Source: Candidatus Latescibacterota bacterium (GTDB lineage: Bacteria > Latescibacterota > UBA2968 > GCA-2709665). Taken from it: 64,000 nucleotides of DNA. The notes beneath the pieces are model-generated. The model was not told the DNA's origin, ran no database searches, and saw only the letters and a program-made list of their open reading frames with translations. The number at the start of each line of letters is the position of its first letter. Position 1 is the stretch's first letter. Positions 19,736 through 28,163 of this stretch are shown one piece after another. The position numbers and the translations under genes were made by a program. The stretch lies in the NCBI GenBank assembly GCA_965222075.1, contig OZ244937.1:4256001-4320000 (forward strand), given 5' to 3'.

Positions 19736-20716
19736 ATGTCACGAAAAGTACTGGTCACCGATTACGCCTGGGCAGACCTGGAGGTGGAGAAGGGTGTTCT
19801 GGACGAGATCGGGGTGGAGGTGGTCGATGCGCCGGATGGGGAGGAGGAGACGCTGGCCGGGCTGGCAGGACAGGGGGTGTGCGGGATTCTGACGTGCTGG
19901 GCGCAGACGACGCGGCAGGTGATCGAGGCGTCATCTAATCTAAAGGCGATCGTGCGCTACGGGGTGGGGCTGGACAATATTGACGTGGCGTTTGCGACCG
20001 GGCAGGGCATTCCGGTGGCGTACGTGCCGGATTACTGTCTGGTTGATGTGGCCGAGCATGCGATGGCGCTGCTGCTGGCGCTCTCCCGAAAGGTGGCGCG
20101 GTTCGATCGGCTGGTCCGGCAGGGGACGTGGGACATCCAGGCGGGGCTGCCGCTACGCCGGCTGACCGGGCAGACGCTGGGGCTGATCGGGTTGGGGCGA
20201 ATCGCCCGGGCGGTGGTGCCCCGGGCGGTGGTATTTGGGCTTAAGGTGGTGGCATTTTCCCCGTCGCTGACACCGGAGCAGGCCTCAGAGGCGGGGGCGG
20301 AAGCAGTGGGCCTGGACCGGCTGCTGGAGGCGTCCGACTATGTGTCGCTCCACTGTCCCTCCTCGGAGAAGACACGGGGGATGATTGATGCGGATGCCTT
20401 AGCGAAGATGAAGCCGACGGCATGTTTGATCAATACGTCCCGGGGAGACCTGGTGGACGAAGCGGCGCTGGCCGAGGCCTTAGAGGCGGGCGGGATTGCA
20501 GGGGCCGCGCTGGACGTGCGGCCCCTGGAGCCGCCGGGCGAGGGGGACCGGCTGATCGGGATGGAGCAGGTGATCCATACCCCGCATGCGGCGTTCTATT
20601 CAGCGGAGTCCCTGGTGGAACTGAGGGAGCGGGCCGCGTGGGAAATGCGCCGGCTGCTGACGGGCGAGGATGCCGAGAATCTGGTGAATCCGGAATACAA
20701 GAAACGTGAGACGTGA
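19736..20716 (+). CDS. D-2-hydroxyacid dehydrogenase (CtBP/SerA-like)
   Basis: GVGLDNID, G.G.I, INTSRG, LDV...EP, TPH.A. Confidence 0.9.
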   Translation: MSRKVLVTDYAWADLEVEKGVLDEIGVEVVDAPDGEEETLAGLAGQGVCGILTCWAQTTRQVIEASSNLKAIVRYGVGLDNIDVAFATGQGIPVAYVPDYCLVDVAEHAMALLLALSRKVARFDRLVRQGTWDIQAGLPLRRLTGQTLGLIGLGRIARAVVPRAVVFGLKVVAFSPSLTPEQASEAGAEAVGLDRLLEASDYVSLHCPSSEKTRGMIDADALAKMKPTACLINTSRGDLVDEAALAEALEAGGIAGAALDVRPLEPPGEGDRLIGMEQVIHTPHAAFYSAESLVELRERAAWEMRRLLTGEDAENLVNPEYKKRET

Positions 20717-20728
20717 ATATCGGGAGGG

Positions 20729-20757
20729 TTCGGAGTCCGCCTGCGGCGGACTCCGAA
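20729..20757. repeat. Short palindrome
   Basis: ttcggagtccgcc-tgc-ggcggactccgaa; a related cggagt-ggg-actccg occurs near 60055. Confidence 0.6.
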
Positions 20758-20769
20758 AAGGACTTTCGT

Positions 20770-21726
20770 ATGTTAGATTGGATTGTTGACGGCAAACAGG
20801 CGTGGCGAGAAGATACCATTGATGACATCCGTTCATGCACCGTCTCTTTGCCGGAGGACGGTCTTTCTGTCCTGGATAAGGCGGTTGAAGATCTGAAGGC
20901 CGGGTCGTGTCCGATAGAAGAGGCGCATGTGCGCGATTACGACTGTCCTGTTTTACGAGAGGCCGCCGGGACCGTGGCTGCTGCGCTTAAGACGGGCCGC
21001 GGATTTGCGATTGTGGATCGCGTGCCGATGGAGCGATACTCGCCCCGGGAAGCGAGGTTGATTTTCTGGCTTTTCGGCCAGCTCATTGGTTTTCCCCATA
21101 AGCAGAGCGCGAAAGGAGGGGTGCTGTTCGATGTGCGGGACGAGGGGCATGACATAACAAAAGGCTCTCGTTATGCGGTTACCAATGCCGAACTTACGTT
21201 TCATACGGACAATGCGCGAAGCGAGGCAGTCCCCGAATACGTGGGACTGCTCTGCGTGCATGCCGCTAAGACGGGAGGGGTCAGCCAGCTTGTCAGTGTT
21301 TACACGGTCCATAACGAGCTGCTGAAAAACCATGCCGATGTACTGGAGGTCCTGTACCAACCGTTCTACTTTGACCGCCGGGGGTTGAGCACAGAGGAGG
21401 AGTCTCCCGTTTCCCGTTTTCCGGTCTTTGAATGGGACGGCCGGGAGTTGCTCTGCCGTTTTATCCGTTATTATATCGAAGTCGGCCACGAGAAGGTGGG
21501 AGAGCCCCTGGCGCCCGATCAGGTCAGGGCCCTGGATGTTCTGCAAAGCCTGCTGCAGCGCCGGGATTTGCGGGTGGAGTTCACCATACAGCGCGGGCAG
21601 ATGCTGTTTTCCAACAATCACCGGGTGCTTCACAATCGCACCGCGTTTGAAGATTATCCGGAACCGGAGCGGCGGCGCCACTTCGTGCGGCTGTGGCTTT
21701 CGAGGCGTGGAAAAGCAGGGCATTGA
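20770..21726 (+). CDS. TauD/TfdA family Fe(II)/2OG dioxygenase
   Basis: FHTD, NN..VLHNR.AF.D, R...R.WL. Confidence 0.88.
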   Translation: MLDWIVDGKQAWREDTIDDIRSCTVSLPEDGLSVLDKAVEDLKAGSCPIEEAHVRDYDCPVLREAAGTVAAALKTGRGFAIVDRVPMERYSPREARLIFWLFGQLIGFPHKQSAKGGVLFDVRDEGHDITKGSRYAVTNAELTFHTDNARSEAVPEYVGLLCVHAAKTGGVSQLVSVYTVHNELLKNHADVLEVLYQPFYFDRRGLSTEEESPVSRFPVFEWDGRELLCRFIRYYIEVGHEKVGEPLAPDQVRALDVLQSLLQRRDLRVEFTIQRGQMLFSNNHRVLHNRTAFEDYPEPERRRHFVRLWLSRRGKAGH

Positions 21727-21727
21727 C

Positions 21728-21757
21728 GGCCCCTGAAGCGTCCGGGGCTTTTTTGTT
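21728..21757 (+). terminator. Intrinsic terminator
   Basis: GC stem gcccc...ggggc followed by a T-tract, directly after the TauD stop. Confidence 0.7.
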
Positions 21758-21818
21758 GATATCCGGTGAGGAGAGAGGTGGAACTTGGAACCGGGGTTGC
21801 CCGATAAGGAGTGGGGAT

Positions 21819-21941
21819 AAAAAGGGCCATTACCAAAGGGACCCAAGGTAGATTGTTGAGCGGGCTGACGTTCGTTCAAGACGTTGTTCAGAGACCGCTG
21901 AAGGTTGGCTACCTGTGGTGCCTGAGCAATGGCCTTTGCGT
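21819..21941 (-). ncRNA. Putative ~120-nt 6S-like rod-shaped ncRNA
   Basis: Upstream TTGACA-17-TATCTT promoter. Sequence folds by eye into one long hairpin with a central C/A-rich bubble and ends in a U-tract. No credible ORF. Confidence 0.6.
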
Positions 21942-21947
21942 GTAGAA

Positions 21948-21976
21948 AAGATAGTGCAGGAACGGACGGGTGTCAA
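21948..21976 (-). promoter_or_regulatory. Sigma70-type promoter for the putative ncRNA
   Basis: Minus strand TTGACA (21976-21971)-17bp-TATCTT (21953-21948). Confidence 0.7.
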
Positions 21977-22040
21977 CAAAAATAGACGGCGGAGACTCAT
22001 GTTCAAAGTTCACAGTGACTTATTTTCACGGACGCCGGGC

Positions 22041-22069
22041 TTGACACGGAGAGCATAAATTGGTAATTT
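22041..22069 (+). promoter_or_regulatory. Sigma70-type promoter for the sigma factor gene
   Basis: TTGACA-17bp-TAATTT; implies a ~140-nt leader. Confidence 0.6.
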
Positions 22070-22214
22070 TTATAGTGTTGGGAGTATGAGAAATTCATCG
22101 GTTGGAAAATCGTCACATGGGCGGATCTCGTGCAAACAAACCGCACTGCTTTAGATGAGATGATGGTGGTGTGGTTTTTTTGTATGCACGGGATTATCAC
22201 TATAGTGAGGACCA

Positions 22215-23063
22215 ATGGCATCACTTGGCGATGAGAAGAACTCTCTCCAGCTTTACATGGAAGATGTGGCTACATCTCGCCCTCTTTCGGCCCAGGAGGA
22301 AGTTAATCTGGCGTCCCGAATCAAAAAGGGCGACATGGGGGCCCGTGCAAAACTGGTGGAGGCCAACCTGAGATTTGTAATTACTATTGCCCGGAAATAC
22401 CAGAACCAGGGGATGCCCTTAGAAGACCTGATCAGCGCCGGGAACCTTGGCCTGGTTACGGCTGCAGAGCGGTTCGACGAGACGCGAGGCTTCAAGTTCA
22501 TCTCTTATGCAGTCTGGTGGATCCGGCAGTCCATCCAGCACACCTTGGCAGAACACCCCCGCATGGTGCGCCTGCCGATAAACCGTGTGGATCTGCTGCG
22601 ACGGATCTTCAAATATATCAACAATCGAGATTGGGAGACCTCTCATCAGCCGGATGAAGAGGAGATTGCAAGAAAGCTGGGCGTATCTGTGGAAATGGTG
22701 AAGGATACACTGAGGCTGGCACGGAATGTCTGGTCTCTGGACGCCACATTTGGGGACGACAACGATAACAGTCTGATGAATCAGATGGTTGACGAGAACC
22801 AGGAGTCGCCCGATGCGCAGTCGATGCGCAACTCCCTTGTAAGGCAGATCGAAGTGGCTCTGGACACCCTCGACGAGCGTGAACGGGAGGTGATCAAGCT
22901 CTACTTCGGCTTAGATGGAACACACGGGATGACCCTGGAGGAGATCGGCTCCAAATTCGGGCTGACCCGCGAGCGCATACGACAGATTAAGGAAAAGGCA
23001 CTGCGCAGGCTTCGCAATCCCGCCCTGGCACGGCAACTCATGCCCTATGTAGAGGAAATTTGA
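22215..23063 (+). CDS. RpoD/SigA-family sigma factor, short FCB-type lacking region 1.1
   Basis: ANLRFV, FDETRGFKFISYAVWWIRQ, VRLP, TLEEIG..FGLTRERIRQI. Confidence 0.92.
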   Translation: MASLGDEKNSLQLYMEDVATSRPLSAQEEVNLASRIKKGDMGARAKLVEANLRFVITIARKYQNQGMPLEDLISAGNLGLVTAAERFDETRGFKFISYAVWWIRQSIQHTLAEHPRMVRLPINRVDLLRRIFKYINNRDWETSHQPDEEEIARKLGVSVEMVKDTLRLARNVWSLDATFGDDNDNSLMNQMVDENQESPDAQSMRNSLVRQIEVALDTLDEREREVIKLYFGLDGTHGMTLEEIGSKFGLTRERIRQIKEKALRRLRNPALARQLMPYVEEI

Positions 23064-23415: not shown

Positions 23416-23496
23416 AATGGAGATCAGCGTTTATACATCACCTTGCCGTTCTTTTGACGTTTGACAGTTGTAGAGGTTTTGTGGCATAGTGGAACG

Positions 23497-23521
23497 GGGG
23501 CACGGCATGCCGTGCCCTTAC
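23497..23521. repeat. REP-like palindrome overlapping the thiE stop
   Basis: ggggcacggcatgccgtgcccttac; copies at 25761 and 39257, variant at 8615. Confidence 0.75.
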
Positions 23522-24150
23522 GGGTGTACGGACCGGATGCGGTCCATCAGGGTGCGGGTGGCCGCTTCGGGGTCGCTTTGGCAGCAGACGGCGGAGATGA
23601 CGGCGATGCCGTGGGCGCCTGCGCAGATGACGTCTGCTGCTGCCGCCGCGTCGATGCCCCCGATGGCGATGACGGGGACGGACAGGTTGTGCACTATTTC
23701 GGAGAGTTTGCCCAGGCCCTGCGCCGCTCCAGCGTCCGGTTTGGAGCCGGTGGAATAGATGGGGCCGAAGCCGACGTAATCGGCCCCGTCGGCGATGCCC
23801 TGCTGCGCTTCTTCGAGATTGCCGCCCGAGACGCCGATGATCCGGTCGGGGCCCAGGAGGTCTCTGGCCAGGCGGACCGGGAAGTCGTCCTGCCCGAGGT
23901 GGACGCCGTGGGCGCCCGCGGCGATGGCCACGTCGACCCGGTCGTTGACGATGAAGGTGATACCGGCCTGCGTGCAGATTTCCTGCATGGCCTCTGCGGT
24001 CTCGATCATGTCGCGGGTGGCGCCGGTTTTCTGGCGGTACTGGACCGTGTCGGCGCCGCCGGCAGCGGCGAGGCGGGCCAGGTCGAGGTGCGAGTAGCGG
24101 TCCTGCAGGAGGGTGTCGGTGAGGACGTGGAGGACGCCGATTTTTTTCAT
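23518..24150 (-). CDS. thiE: Thiamine-phosphate synthase
   Basis: VQYRQK, IVNDRVD, GVHLGQDD, GPIY.T.SK, AIGGI. Confidence 0.92.
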   Translation of the reverse strand: MKKIGVLHVLTDTLLQDRYSHLDLARLAAAGGADTVQYRQKTGATRDMIETAEAMQEICTQAGITFIVNDRVDVAIAAGAHGVHLGQDDFPVRLARDLLGPDRIIGVSGGNLEEAQQGIADGADYVGFGPIYSTGSKPDAGAAQGLGKLSEIVHNLSVPVIAIGGIDAAAAADVICAGAHGIAVISAVCCQSDPEAATRTLMDRIRSVHP

Positions 24151-24220
24151 AGAAAATCTCCGATACAACTGGGCGCTGGCGACCCGTACCCAGGTATACC
24201 GTGAGCGCCAGGAAAGGAAG

Positions 24221-25018
24221 TCAATGGCCTTTTGAGAGGAAGTAGAAGTGGTTGGTGGGGCCGTGGCCGTGACCGATGGAGAGGCTGTAGCGGATCGCTT
24301 CGGTGACGTAGATTTTTGCGCTGCCCACGGCCTCTTTCAGCAATTTTCCGTTCGCCAGGCCGGCGGCGATGGCGGCGGAATAAGTACACCCGGTTCCGTG
24401 CGTGTTTTGGGTATCAATCCGTTCGCCTGCAAAGAGGGTCTCCTCACCTCCGTCGAAGAGGATGTCCAGGGCCTGGGGATGGTCTTCAAGGTGGCCGCCT
24501 TTGACCAGGACGGCCCGGGGGCCGTAGTCGAAGATTTTCCGGGCGGCCTCTTTGGCCTGGTCGACGGTTTCGATTTCCATGTCGGCCAGCAGCCGGGCTT
24601 CGTGAATGTTGGGGGTTACAAGCGTTGCGAGGGGGAGGAGGCGGTCTTTGACGCTTTCGAGGGCGTCCGGTTTGAGGAGCGCGAATCCGCTTTTGGAGAT
24701 CATCACCGGATCGACGACCAGGTTGGCGACCTGGCGTCTGGCGAGTTGTTCGGAGACGGCCTGGACTATGGCGCTGGAGGAGAGCATGCCGGTTTTGACG
24801 GCAGCGACCTCAAAGTCGTCGAAAATGGCGTTGATCTGGGCCACGATCAGGTCGGTCGGGAGGTCGAAGGCCTGCCGCACCTCCCGGCTGTTCTGGGCGG
24901 TGATGGAGGTGATGACCGACATGCCGAAGGCGCCGTTGGCGTGAAAGGCCTTGAGGTCGGCCTGAATGCCGGCGCCTCCTCCAGAGTCAGATCCGGCGAT
25001 GGTGAGGACTTGTTTCAT
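24221..25018 (-). CDS. thiD: Hydroxymethylpyrimidine/phosphomethylpyrimidine kinase
   Basis: IAGSDSGGGAGIQADLK, DPVM, KGGH, THGTGCT. Confidence 0.95.
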   Translation of the reverse strand: MKQVLTIAGSDSGGGAGIQADLKAFHANGAFGMSVITSITAQNSREVRQAFDLPTDLIVAQINAIFDDFEVAAVKTGMLSSSAIVQAVSEQLARRQVANLVVDPVMISKSGFALLKPDALESVKDRLLPLATLVTPNIHEARLLADMEIETVDQAKEAARKIFDYGPRAVLVKGGHLEDHPQALDILFDGGEETLFAGERIDTQNTHGTGCTYSAAIAAGLANGKLLKEAVGSAKIYVTEAIRYSLSIGHGHGPTNHFYFLSKGH

Positions 25019-25067
25019 AGGTTGGGGAATTGCAAAATGAAAATTGCAAATTTCAGATGGGTCGCCC

Positions 25068-25752
25068 CTACGACGTTTCCCAGGCACCGAGGTAGGCCCT
25101 GACTGCGGCTTCGATGTTTTCTGCGGCGAGAATGCCCGACATGACGGCGATGCCGGCAGCGCCTGCGGACCGGCAGAGGGGGACGCGCTCGGGCGTGATG
25201 CCGCCCAGGGCGAAGACCGGGAGACCTGCCTGCCTGCGTGCCTGCGTCCCTCGGACAGGCAGGCTGGGGAGTGCTCGGCAGGCAGGCGGTCTGAACTGCT
25301 GAGCGGAGACCGGAAAGACCGACCGCCGGACCGTAGCCGGGTTTGGAAGCCGGAGGATAGGTAGGGCTGTAGGTTACGAAGTCTGCGCCTCCCTCTGCTG
25401 CCCGTTCGAGTTCCTGCAGGGTGTGCGTTGAGCAGCCGATGAGGAGGTGGTTTCCGTATTTCTGCCGTACCGCTCCAGGCGCGGGCCCCAAGGCCGGTAG
25501 GTGGACGCCCCGGGCGCCAAGTTCGACAGCGACCTCGGCTCGGGTGTTGATGGTGAGATGGGCGCCGCAGGCATCGGTCAGGCTCAGGATGTTACCGGCC
25601 AGCCGCCGGAGGGCATCCGTGTCCAGGTCTTTCTCCCGGAGTTGGACGAATCGGACGCCGGCGTCGAGCGCCCGGGCCAGGACCTCTTCGAGGGGGCGAG
25701 GCGCGCATGTGGCGCGGTCGATGATGAGGTAGAGGGGCGGCAGGCTGTCCAT
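25068..25752 (-). pseudogene. tenI: TenI/ThiE-like protein frameshifted by a 58-bp palindromic insertion
   Basis: VQLREKD, GVHLP, GCSTH, SKPGYG. The canonical C-terminus LPVFALGGITPERV...GIAVMSGI lies in another frame after the insert at 25229-25286. Confidence 0.8.
25229..25286. mobile_element. Nested miniature palindromic insertion (cctgcctgc...gcaggcagg)
   Basis: Removing these 58 bp restores QTAGLPVFALGG. A 23-bp inner element at 25241-25263 sits inside a 35-bp outer element. Confidence 0.75.
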
Positions 25753-28004: not shown

Positions 28005-28059
28005 TCCCAAAAAAGGACCGCCCTTCGAATCGTATCGAAAAGCGGCAACCGCCCGTTTT

Positions 28060-28138
28060 TTCGACTCCCTGCGCCGGTATGACCCGGATCAGGTTCAAAG
28101 GGTATGATCTCAGCTCGACAGACGAGCACCCCTGCACA
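28060..28138 (-). ncRNA. TPP riboswitch
   Basis: Minus strand AGGGGTGC...GCTGAGA..ATACCC.TTGAACCTGATCCGGGTCATACCGGCGCAGGGA upstream of the thi operon. Confidence 0.93.
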
Positions 28139-28163
28139 ACCTTAATTTGTTGGACCATCAATA

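Follow-up and report, generated by a model that had tools for sequence, protein, structure and literature searches.

A conserved rod-shaped RNA of Candidatus Latescibacterota: a new family with a possible 6S-like role

The window analysed here, a 64,000-nt stretch of Candidatus Latescibacterota DNA (G000:C1:4256001-4320000, from the single-contig 5.36-Mb genome G000), carries on its minus strand a short element composed of a promoter, a rod-shaped RNA and a terminal U-run. The element is a stand-alone, single-copy, conserved and structured non-coding RNA gene. Its parts are listed below in window positions; column identities are means over 28 distinct sequences found with a covariance model (CM), and the length given for the 3′ bubble strand excludes one misaligned row.

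21971..21976, minus strand: −35 hexamer TTGACA, from the promoter scan
21948..21953, minus strand: −10 hexamer TATCTT, with a C just before it, from the promoter scan
21819..21941, minus strand: predicted transcript of ~123 nt, its start placed from the −10 spacing and its end from the U-run
21909..21934, minus strand: 5′ strand of the closing arm, P1-P4 (GGCCAUUGC, AGG, ACC, AGGUAG), from the fold; column identity 0.916
21899..21908, minus strand: 5′ strand of the bubble, CCAACCUUCA, with a near-invariant core CCAACCU; identity 0.893, length 10-15 nt
21860..21898, minus strand: apical arm (GCGG/CCGC, CUGA/UCAG, apical hairpin); identity 0.756, length differing between lineages
21852..21859, minus strand: 3′ strand of the bubble, UCAACAAU, variable in sequence; identity 0.598, length 7-8 nt
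21825..21851, minus strand: 3′ strand of the closing arm (CUACCU, GGU, CCU, GGUAAUGGCC), from the fold; identity 0.909
21819..21823, minus strand: U-run of five T in the sequence, a predicted intrinsic-terminator tail directly 3′ of the closing stem

The promoter occupies 21976-21948, where the original prediction, made from the letters alone, had read TTGACA-17-TATCTT; the spacer is 17 nt and the site scores 10/12 in the promoter scan. Of three promoter-like sites in the 2-kb region it scores highest; shuffled sequences yield 1.0 ± 1.2 such sites. TTGAC- keeps this spacing in all 21 sequences aligned from the window's family and in some of those from the sister family, and (C)TATCTT is retained in nearly all homologues in the alignment with flanks. 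Genome-wide, TATCTT is the third commonest −10 hexamer lying 16-18 nt behind TTGAC[AT], with 47 sites (TATATT 82, TATTTT 48, TATAAT 10) against a chance expectation of ~4 by our own arithmetic; the promoter is therefore of the full-consensus housekeeping type for its host, and is predicted to drive the RNA gene. At the other end the U-run that had been described directly follows the closing stem, and a T-run after the stem is present in all aligned homologues. The RNA encodes no protein, since the program-made list of open reading frames (ORFs) holds none wholly within the predicted transcript, in keeping with the earlier claim. ORFs 21830-22006(-) and 20953-21879(-) were set aside as shadow frames, with starts upstream of the promoter or inside the rod.

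The minimum free energy fold of 21945-21815(-), computed with RNAfold, is a single rod of −43.6 kcal/mol (z = −4.8, with 0/200 shuffles as stable), and the opposite strand folds less exceptionally (z = −3.3). The rod reproduces every stem that had been listed beforehand: GGCCAUUGC/GUAAUGGCC, AGG/CCU, ACC/GGU and AGGUAG/CUACCU form the closing arm, followed beyond the bubble by AGCGG/CCGCU, CUGA/UCAG and an apical ACG/CGU hairpin. The central bubble is asymmetric, CCAACCUUC(A) facing (U)CAACAAU, and measures 10 x 8 nt in the window's RNA. When folded individually, 17/17 representative sequences adopt this rod, in which the position of the bubble is constant and its 5′ strand unpaired. Across these RNAs the bubble spans 10-15 x 7-8 nt and is bordered at either end by G-C pairs, and the apical arm is interrupted by small loops. 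The RNA is 118-123 nt long in the window's family, ~119-120 nt in genera g10 and g11, 136 nt in g9 and 153 nt in g8; the extra length of the longer sister-genus RNAs is a straight extension of the apical arm, the apical domain, 38-41 nt in the window's family, measuring 53-80 nt in sister genera.

The rod structure is supported by covariation, as measured in alignments that were themselves fitted to the model's structure. In a set of 33 matches (28 distinct), 98.0% of cells are paired and 7/31 pairs show changes on both sides, with 0/500 shuffles doing as well. Adding metagenome sequences gives 40 matches (33 distinct), in which 97.2% of 1018 cells are paired, 8/31 pairs change on both sides and 0/500 shuffles reach any of five covariation measures; those retrieved by pattern had been selected for part of the 5′ strand of helix 1 and of helix 3. 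As a control, sliding the 3′ partners by 1-3 columns leaves 22.7-47.7% of cells paired. Covariation is found in four helices, and both apical-arm helices carry compensatory changes. In helix 1 (9 bp) compensatory changes are absent and all substitutions are of wobble type (U-A to U-G, G-U to A-U, C-G to U-G), and one of its pairs is G-U in 30/33 sequences, a pair that would mismatch on the other strand. CM R1, built from 21 sequences, scores the forward strand at 117.4 bits and the reverse at 35 bits. Together, the wobble pattern of helix 1 and this difference in score argue that the RNA is read from the minus strand of the window.

The element is present once in G000, where CM R1 matches C1:4277818-4277937(-) at 117.4 bits. 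A DNA search of 41 related genomes finds it in 23, counting G000 (20/21 in the same family, 2/19 in the sister family). The −35 box, spacer length, −10 box, whole rod and T-run are conserved, and the outer flanks cannot be aligned between genera; promoter, rod and U-run recur in 28 other genomes. The retention of these three parts while the flanks diverge therefore argues for a real gene, and together with the compensatory changes it gives the homologues and covariation that the original prediction had called for. Across the order, R1 finds the RNA in 29/53 genomes, namely in 20/21 of the window's family (f1) and 8/31 of the sister family (f2). Wherever R1 matches a genome twice, the second match is the same site read on the opposite strand, leaving one forward match each. 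The eight matches in f2 are confirmed at 63-95 bits by R2, a second and broader CM, and fall in four genera. A fifth genus of f2, g6, gave none: R1 matches 0/21 of its genomes, and 4/4 genomes read lack the RNA at the syntenic position downstream of thiE. Candidate g6 homologues raised by R2 in 5/21 genomes, at E = 0.016-0.55 only, were rejected, both of those inspected being without promoter and rod. In the other two families of the class R1 matches 0/3 (f3) and 0/76 (f4) genomes; R2 matches 1/41 sampled f4 genomes weakly, at E = 0.06, so that none is convincing.

On a wider scale, an exact-pattern scan of the genomes of 185,579 species returns 25 loci, assigned by their titles to Latescibacterota/Latescibacteria (19), Gemmatimonadota metagenome-assembled genomes (MAGs; 3) and unclassified MAGs (3), and a further 12 metagenome contigs carry the same exact pattern. 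Collectively, the searches indicate that only part of one order of Candidatus Latescibacterota has the RNA, with MAGs as hosts.

At gathering thresholds Rfam 15 matches only a thiamine pyrophosphate (TPP) riboswitch in the window and leaves the element unmatched, and a permissive scan of 21600-22250 (E ≤ 10) places nothing on it. Kinship with 6S RNA or 6S-Flavo, which the original prediction had proposed for checking, is not borne out by their models. The 6S model RF00013 (gathering score 46.4 bits) gives no match on the element at E ≤ 10 and none in the genome at E ≤ 1, and the 6S-Flavo model RF01685 (gathering score 85 bits) is likewise without a match at these two settings. The signal recognition particle (SRP) RNA was considered and dropped: the genome's own copy (RF00169) lies at G000:C1:2391133-2391233 with 72.4 bits and nothing falls on the element, which agrees with the earlier observation that the SRP motif is absent. 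Just upstream of that SRP RNA is a T-arm-like GGTCGAATTCCC resembling the 3′ part of a tRNA, and the two may be co-transcribed. A Y RNA was rejected for want of any Rfam match and of a detectable Ro/TROVE gene (PF05731) in the genome, and a dispersed repeat or miniature inverted-repeat transposable element (MITE) because the element is single-copy, with one forward match per genome in relatives; a different known family or a repeat, either of which would have undone the proposal, was thus looked for and none was found. Hfq and CsrA, the usual partners of other types of small RNA (sRNA), were not detected in the genome either.

A literature search returned no paper joining '6S RNA' and 'Latescibacter' in full text and no described regulatory RNA for Latescibacterota; the text of one genomics study of Latescibacterota sponge MAGs is without the term 'noncoding RNA', and '6S-Flavo' led to Weinberg et al. 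2010 alone. Orphan rod RNAs are turning up in many uncultured lineages. The new RNA is supported as a family of its own, absent from Rfam 15. Of the two possibilities offered at the outset, a miniature 6S or a new ncRNA class, the second stands in the form of a conserved, covarying family with no Rfam match up to E = 10, and the first is not shown.

Relatives of this genome likewise give no canonical 6S: RF00013 finds 0/53 in the order and none among the genomes sampled from f1-f4 of the class. Among 151 sampled genomes, six from two other families of the phylum carry full-length 6S matches of 176-180 nt at 22.7-43.2 bits, below the 46.4-bit threshold; these are likely genuine 6S genes missed by standard annotation, and the phylum is therefore not generally free of 6S. 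The six genomes concerned (G145, G141, G160, G136, G153, G149) are small and richer in AT. A hidden 6S was sought in G000 upstream of the 5-formyl-tetrahydrofolate cyclo-ligase gene, with nothing found, and upstream of folE, with nothing obvious; the sub-threshold 6S genes of the phylum have no flanking context in common. A scan of the genome for a promoter followed by a rod and a T-run, which was not exhaustive, reduced 501 promoter-like sites to 14 rods, among which the new RNA ranks third; none of the 14 is 6S-shaped, and the top one is a dispersed repeat. This repeat, at G000:C1:2693779-2694089(-), combines TTGACA-17-TATATT with a 225-nt near-perfect hairpin of −115.6 kcal/mol. Its palindromic core of ~170 nt has 12 blastn matches in G000, two of them long and the rest fragments, none in the window; the sister species and genus g2 have up to at least 18 matches per genome, with first-look candidates numbering up to 199. 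The palindrome has no Rfam match and is probably MITE-like.

The genes around the element differ between lineages. In the window, the 3′ side of the RNA faces a plus-strand gene for a TauD-family dioxygenase (20713-21726), which has a terminator of its own (21731-21747). On the other side lies a sigma-70-family gene of 282 aa (22215-23063, plus strand) with regions 1.2, 2, 3 and 4; in NCBIfam it scores best with the RpoS and RpoD models, though never up to a cut-off. The position of the RNA between these two genes is peculiar to the window's genus (2/29 loci), and a functional link to the adjacent sigma gene was therefore rejected. At 17/29 loci thiE lies directly upstream on the same strand; it does not do so in the sister family, and the arrangement was taken as inherited gene order instead of a functional link to thiamine genes. 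At several other loci a 2-hydroxyacid dehydrogenase gene converges on the RNA. The next downstream gene is convergent in every locus examined, with none downstream on the same strand, and the RNA is therefore not a cis-regulatory leader.

The thiamine operon of the window, also on the minus strand, is headed by the TPP riboswitch (28049-28143, minus strand; 73.4 bits, above its gathering score) and ends with thiD (24221-25087) and thiE (23518-24168). ORF 23461-24204(+), which looked like a conserved neighbour, is an antisense shadow of thiE. In genome G022, the region ~270-390 nt downstream of thiE contains, as seen by eye, three tandem units of ~45 nt, each with an inverted repeat GAACTGGC...GCCAGTTG; they sit at the position that the RNA gene takes in the window's family.

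Public sequence runs provide a weak hint of transcription. Among the runs listed, 20 from eight studies contain all or some of the stretch, and four of these are RNA libraries from one study, labelled as sponge metagenome. Their contigs, 100% identical to the window, cover 21595-21926, 21596-21893, 21659-21858 and 21598-21833, and thus reach to 15 nt short of the predicted start. Separate RNA-library contigs start at 22113 or 22136, ~80-100 nt ahead of the sigma gene's start codon, and cover its 5′ region. None of these contigs lies over 21927-22112 or 21300-21594, and 21595-21598 is where three of them end; no inference was drawn from these gaps.

The question of function turns on how the conserved parts compare with those of 6S. 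In the Rfam 6S consensus, conserved letters lie on the apical side of the bubble and in its 3′ strand, CCCACCUgg, where the upstream-like arm meets the bubble; the 5′ strand of the bubble is printed in lower case and is rich in A/U. The bubble core CCAACCU(U) of the new RNA is likewise placed at an arm/bubble junction. Passages of PMC8876501 locate a '-35-like' element of 6S in the apical arm and a '-10-like' element in the 3′ bubble strand, with the 5′ bubble strand as template; they name A131, C132, U134, U135 and G136 as the '-10-like' residues of E. coli 6S, single mutations of which have little effect on binding, and describe the terminal stem as dispensable for binding RNA polymerase (RNAP). 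In the new RNA, inspection by eye for 6S-type refolding after product-RNA synthesis, either as a hairpin in the 3′ bubble strand or as a bubble-collapse helix, revealed no conserved alternative pairing.

Against this background the new RNA may act as a protein-binding decoy, most likely on RNAP holoenzyme. That it occupies the holoenzyme as a 6S-like mimic of the open promoter is put forward tentatively, as a possibility held at somewhat less than even confidence. The genome is without a recognisable 6S, and a 6S-like function therefore stays the best single guess, offered as no established identity, since membership in 6S is not shown. The rod's general architecture and its strong housekeeping promoter suit that role, and the failure to detect Hfq, CsrA or Ro/TROVE in the genome speaks for it too. 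The protein would read the near-invariant closing arm together with the near-invariant 5′ bubble strand, whose core CCAACCU contains ACCU(U), and it would tolerate variation in the 3′ bubble strand and in the length of the apical arm.

Several observations weigh against a 6S-like decoy. The new RNA measures 118-153 nt and 6S ~180-200 nt, and the bubble of the window's RNA is 10 x 8 nt compared with ~16 x 13 in the 6S consensus; CM similarity to 6S or 6S-Flavo is absent even at E ≤ 10. Genus g6 (0/21 convincing) and family f4 (0 convincing among 41 sampled) have neither the RNA nor a detectable 6S, so the RNA does not neatly fill the 6S gap. The RNA-library contigs, which show neither strand, ends nor level and may stem from DNA carry-over, extend ~220 nt past the U-run, so that termination there may be incomplete. 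The shared ACCU motif is only 4-5 nt long, and the argument from its orientation came after the data had been seen. The point considered most telling against 6S membership is that conservation is inverted: the new RNA conserves the 5′ bubble strand and the closing arm, whereas 6S conserves the 3′ bubble strand and the apical flank.

Because this pattern is the reverse of that in canonical 6S, the new RNA would be either a mimic of inverted topology or the RNA of a different ribonucleoprotein (RNP). In the former case, with RNAP as partner, the favoured geometry would have the closing arm, which carries the ends of the RNA, stand in for the upstream duplex on the '-35 side'. The 5′ bubble strand would be the non-template '-10-like' strand and the 3′ bubble strand the template, and the apical hairpin loop would cap a downstream-like arm lying in the downstream channel. 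Small observations noticed post hoc fit this geometry, namely the ACCU(U) likeness and the spacing of AACCUU in the bubble core, which lies 17 nt downstream of UUG in helix 1 and agrees with TATCTT at 4/6 positions (A, C, U, U). A natural, circularly permuted analogue of 6S in this specific sense nevertheless seems decidedly unlikely.

A different RNP is the most serious rival of the RNAP decoy, though itself somewhat doubtful. The RNA would then be a subunit or decoy of another protein, a lineage-specific RNP or protein sponge that reads the closing arm and the CCAACCU loop without any RNAP. Nucleotide identity beyond what pairing demands is kept across the order in the closing arm (0.916/0.909) and the 5′ bubble strand (0.893), as is typical of sequence-specific protein contacts, and helix 1, with wobble changes only and zero compensatory ones, fits the same picture; the patchy occurrence within one family, in four genera and not found in the fifth, would suit an accessory system that can be lost. 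What counts against it is that no candidate partner has emerged: Ro/TROVE, Hfq and CsrA were not found in the genome, and no protein gene is a conserved neighbour, given thiE at 17/29 loci, a 2-hydroxyacid dehydrogenase gene elsewhere and the sigma/TauD pair in the window's genus only.

The unpaired CCAACCU could instead be a seed that pairs with mRNAs in trans, with the rod as scaffold and terminator. Its most conserved unpaired stretch, 7-8 nt, has the length of a typical seed, and the RNA has its own promoter and a 3′ end like an intrinsic terminator. Such a base-pairing sRNA is nonetheless unlikely, given that the putative seed is inside an internal loop of a stable rod and not at the 5′ end or in a hairpin loop, that the paired arms are as conserved as the seed itself, that Hfq was not found in the genome, and that complementary words of 9-13 nt occur at about chance counts with no outstanding site in a crude scan made without gene positions or conservation. 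A passive structural role, as a terminator or insulator hairpin between convergent genes or as a decayed mobile palindrome, recalls the convergent transcription units between which the element lies at the loci examined and the dispersed ~170-nt palindromic repeat found elsewhere in these genomes. The element is, however, single-copy and unrelated to that repeat, a conserved dedicated promoter stands in front of it, its bubble and internal loops are fixed in position with covariation in four helices, and its G-U pairs make the fold strand-specific; conservation largely refutes the passive reading, which is very improbable.

Were the RNAP decoy of inverted geometry true, mimicry of the open promoter would exist in a second topology, reached by evolution or by permutation, which would bear directly on how RNAP reads 6S-type decoys, and product RNAs (pRNAs) would be copied from the 3′ half of the molecule. 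To our knowledge, product RNAs from the 3′ half have been described for no natural 6S. Should the inverted reading be wrong, the invariant internal loop would point to an RNA-binding partner in sponge- and marine-associated bacteria. Latescibacterota, an uncultured candidate phylum, in any case gains a well-defined, strongly promoted and structurally supported sRNA family suited to Rfam, and with it a definite candidate for the role of 6S, for which the standard model turns up nothing in this class.

Among known systems, the bacterial Y RNAs of Ro60/Rsr share with the new RNA a rod formed from paired 5′ and 3′ ends, a conserved internal loop and a 3′ U tail, and differ in the lack, noted above, of a Y-RNA match and of a TROVE/Ro gene. 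The hosts of 6S-Flavo RNA belong to the same FCB-group neighbourhood of phyla as Latescibacterota. Ms1 of Actinobacteria is much longer, at ~300 nt, and its relation to the new RNA was checked via Rfam models only. Parts of PMC9130861 describe Ms1 as a 6S-like structured RNA that binds RNAP where canonical 6S is missing, engaging the core enzyme and not the holoenzyme. 6S-Flavo (RF01685), as portrayed in excerpts of PMC2864571, is a short lineage-specific rod of 108 model positions to which a 6S function was assigned by shape; the comparison with the new RNA, for which its model has no match, was by CM search and general shape only.

The closest resemblance in architecture is to 6S itself (RF00013). 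Both RNAs come from a stand-alone, abundant-type sRNA gene under a strong housekeeping promoter, both form a rod in which G-C pairs border a central bubble between the closing and apical arms, with small loops in either arm, and both have a conserved ACCU-containing bubble strand beside an arm. Sections of PMC8876501 on truncated 6S RNAs report that a 78-nt B. subtilis 6S-1 binds RNAP, templates pRNA and is released in vitro; this core completes the 6S cycle, and small size alone is therefore not disqualifying. The constructs 6S78 and 6S82cp described there are artificial, bind ~10-fold more weakly and are not homologous to the new RNA, and 6S82cp templated pRNA poorly. With a bubble and two short arms in 78-82 nt, they are nevertheless reported in the same sections to suffice for RNAP binding, pRNA synthesis and release in vitro, and in 6S82cp a loop caps the downstream-like helix, which is the topology proposed for the new RNA.

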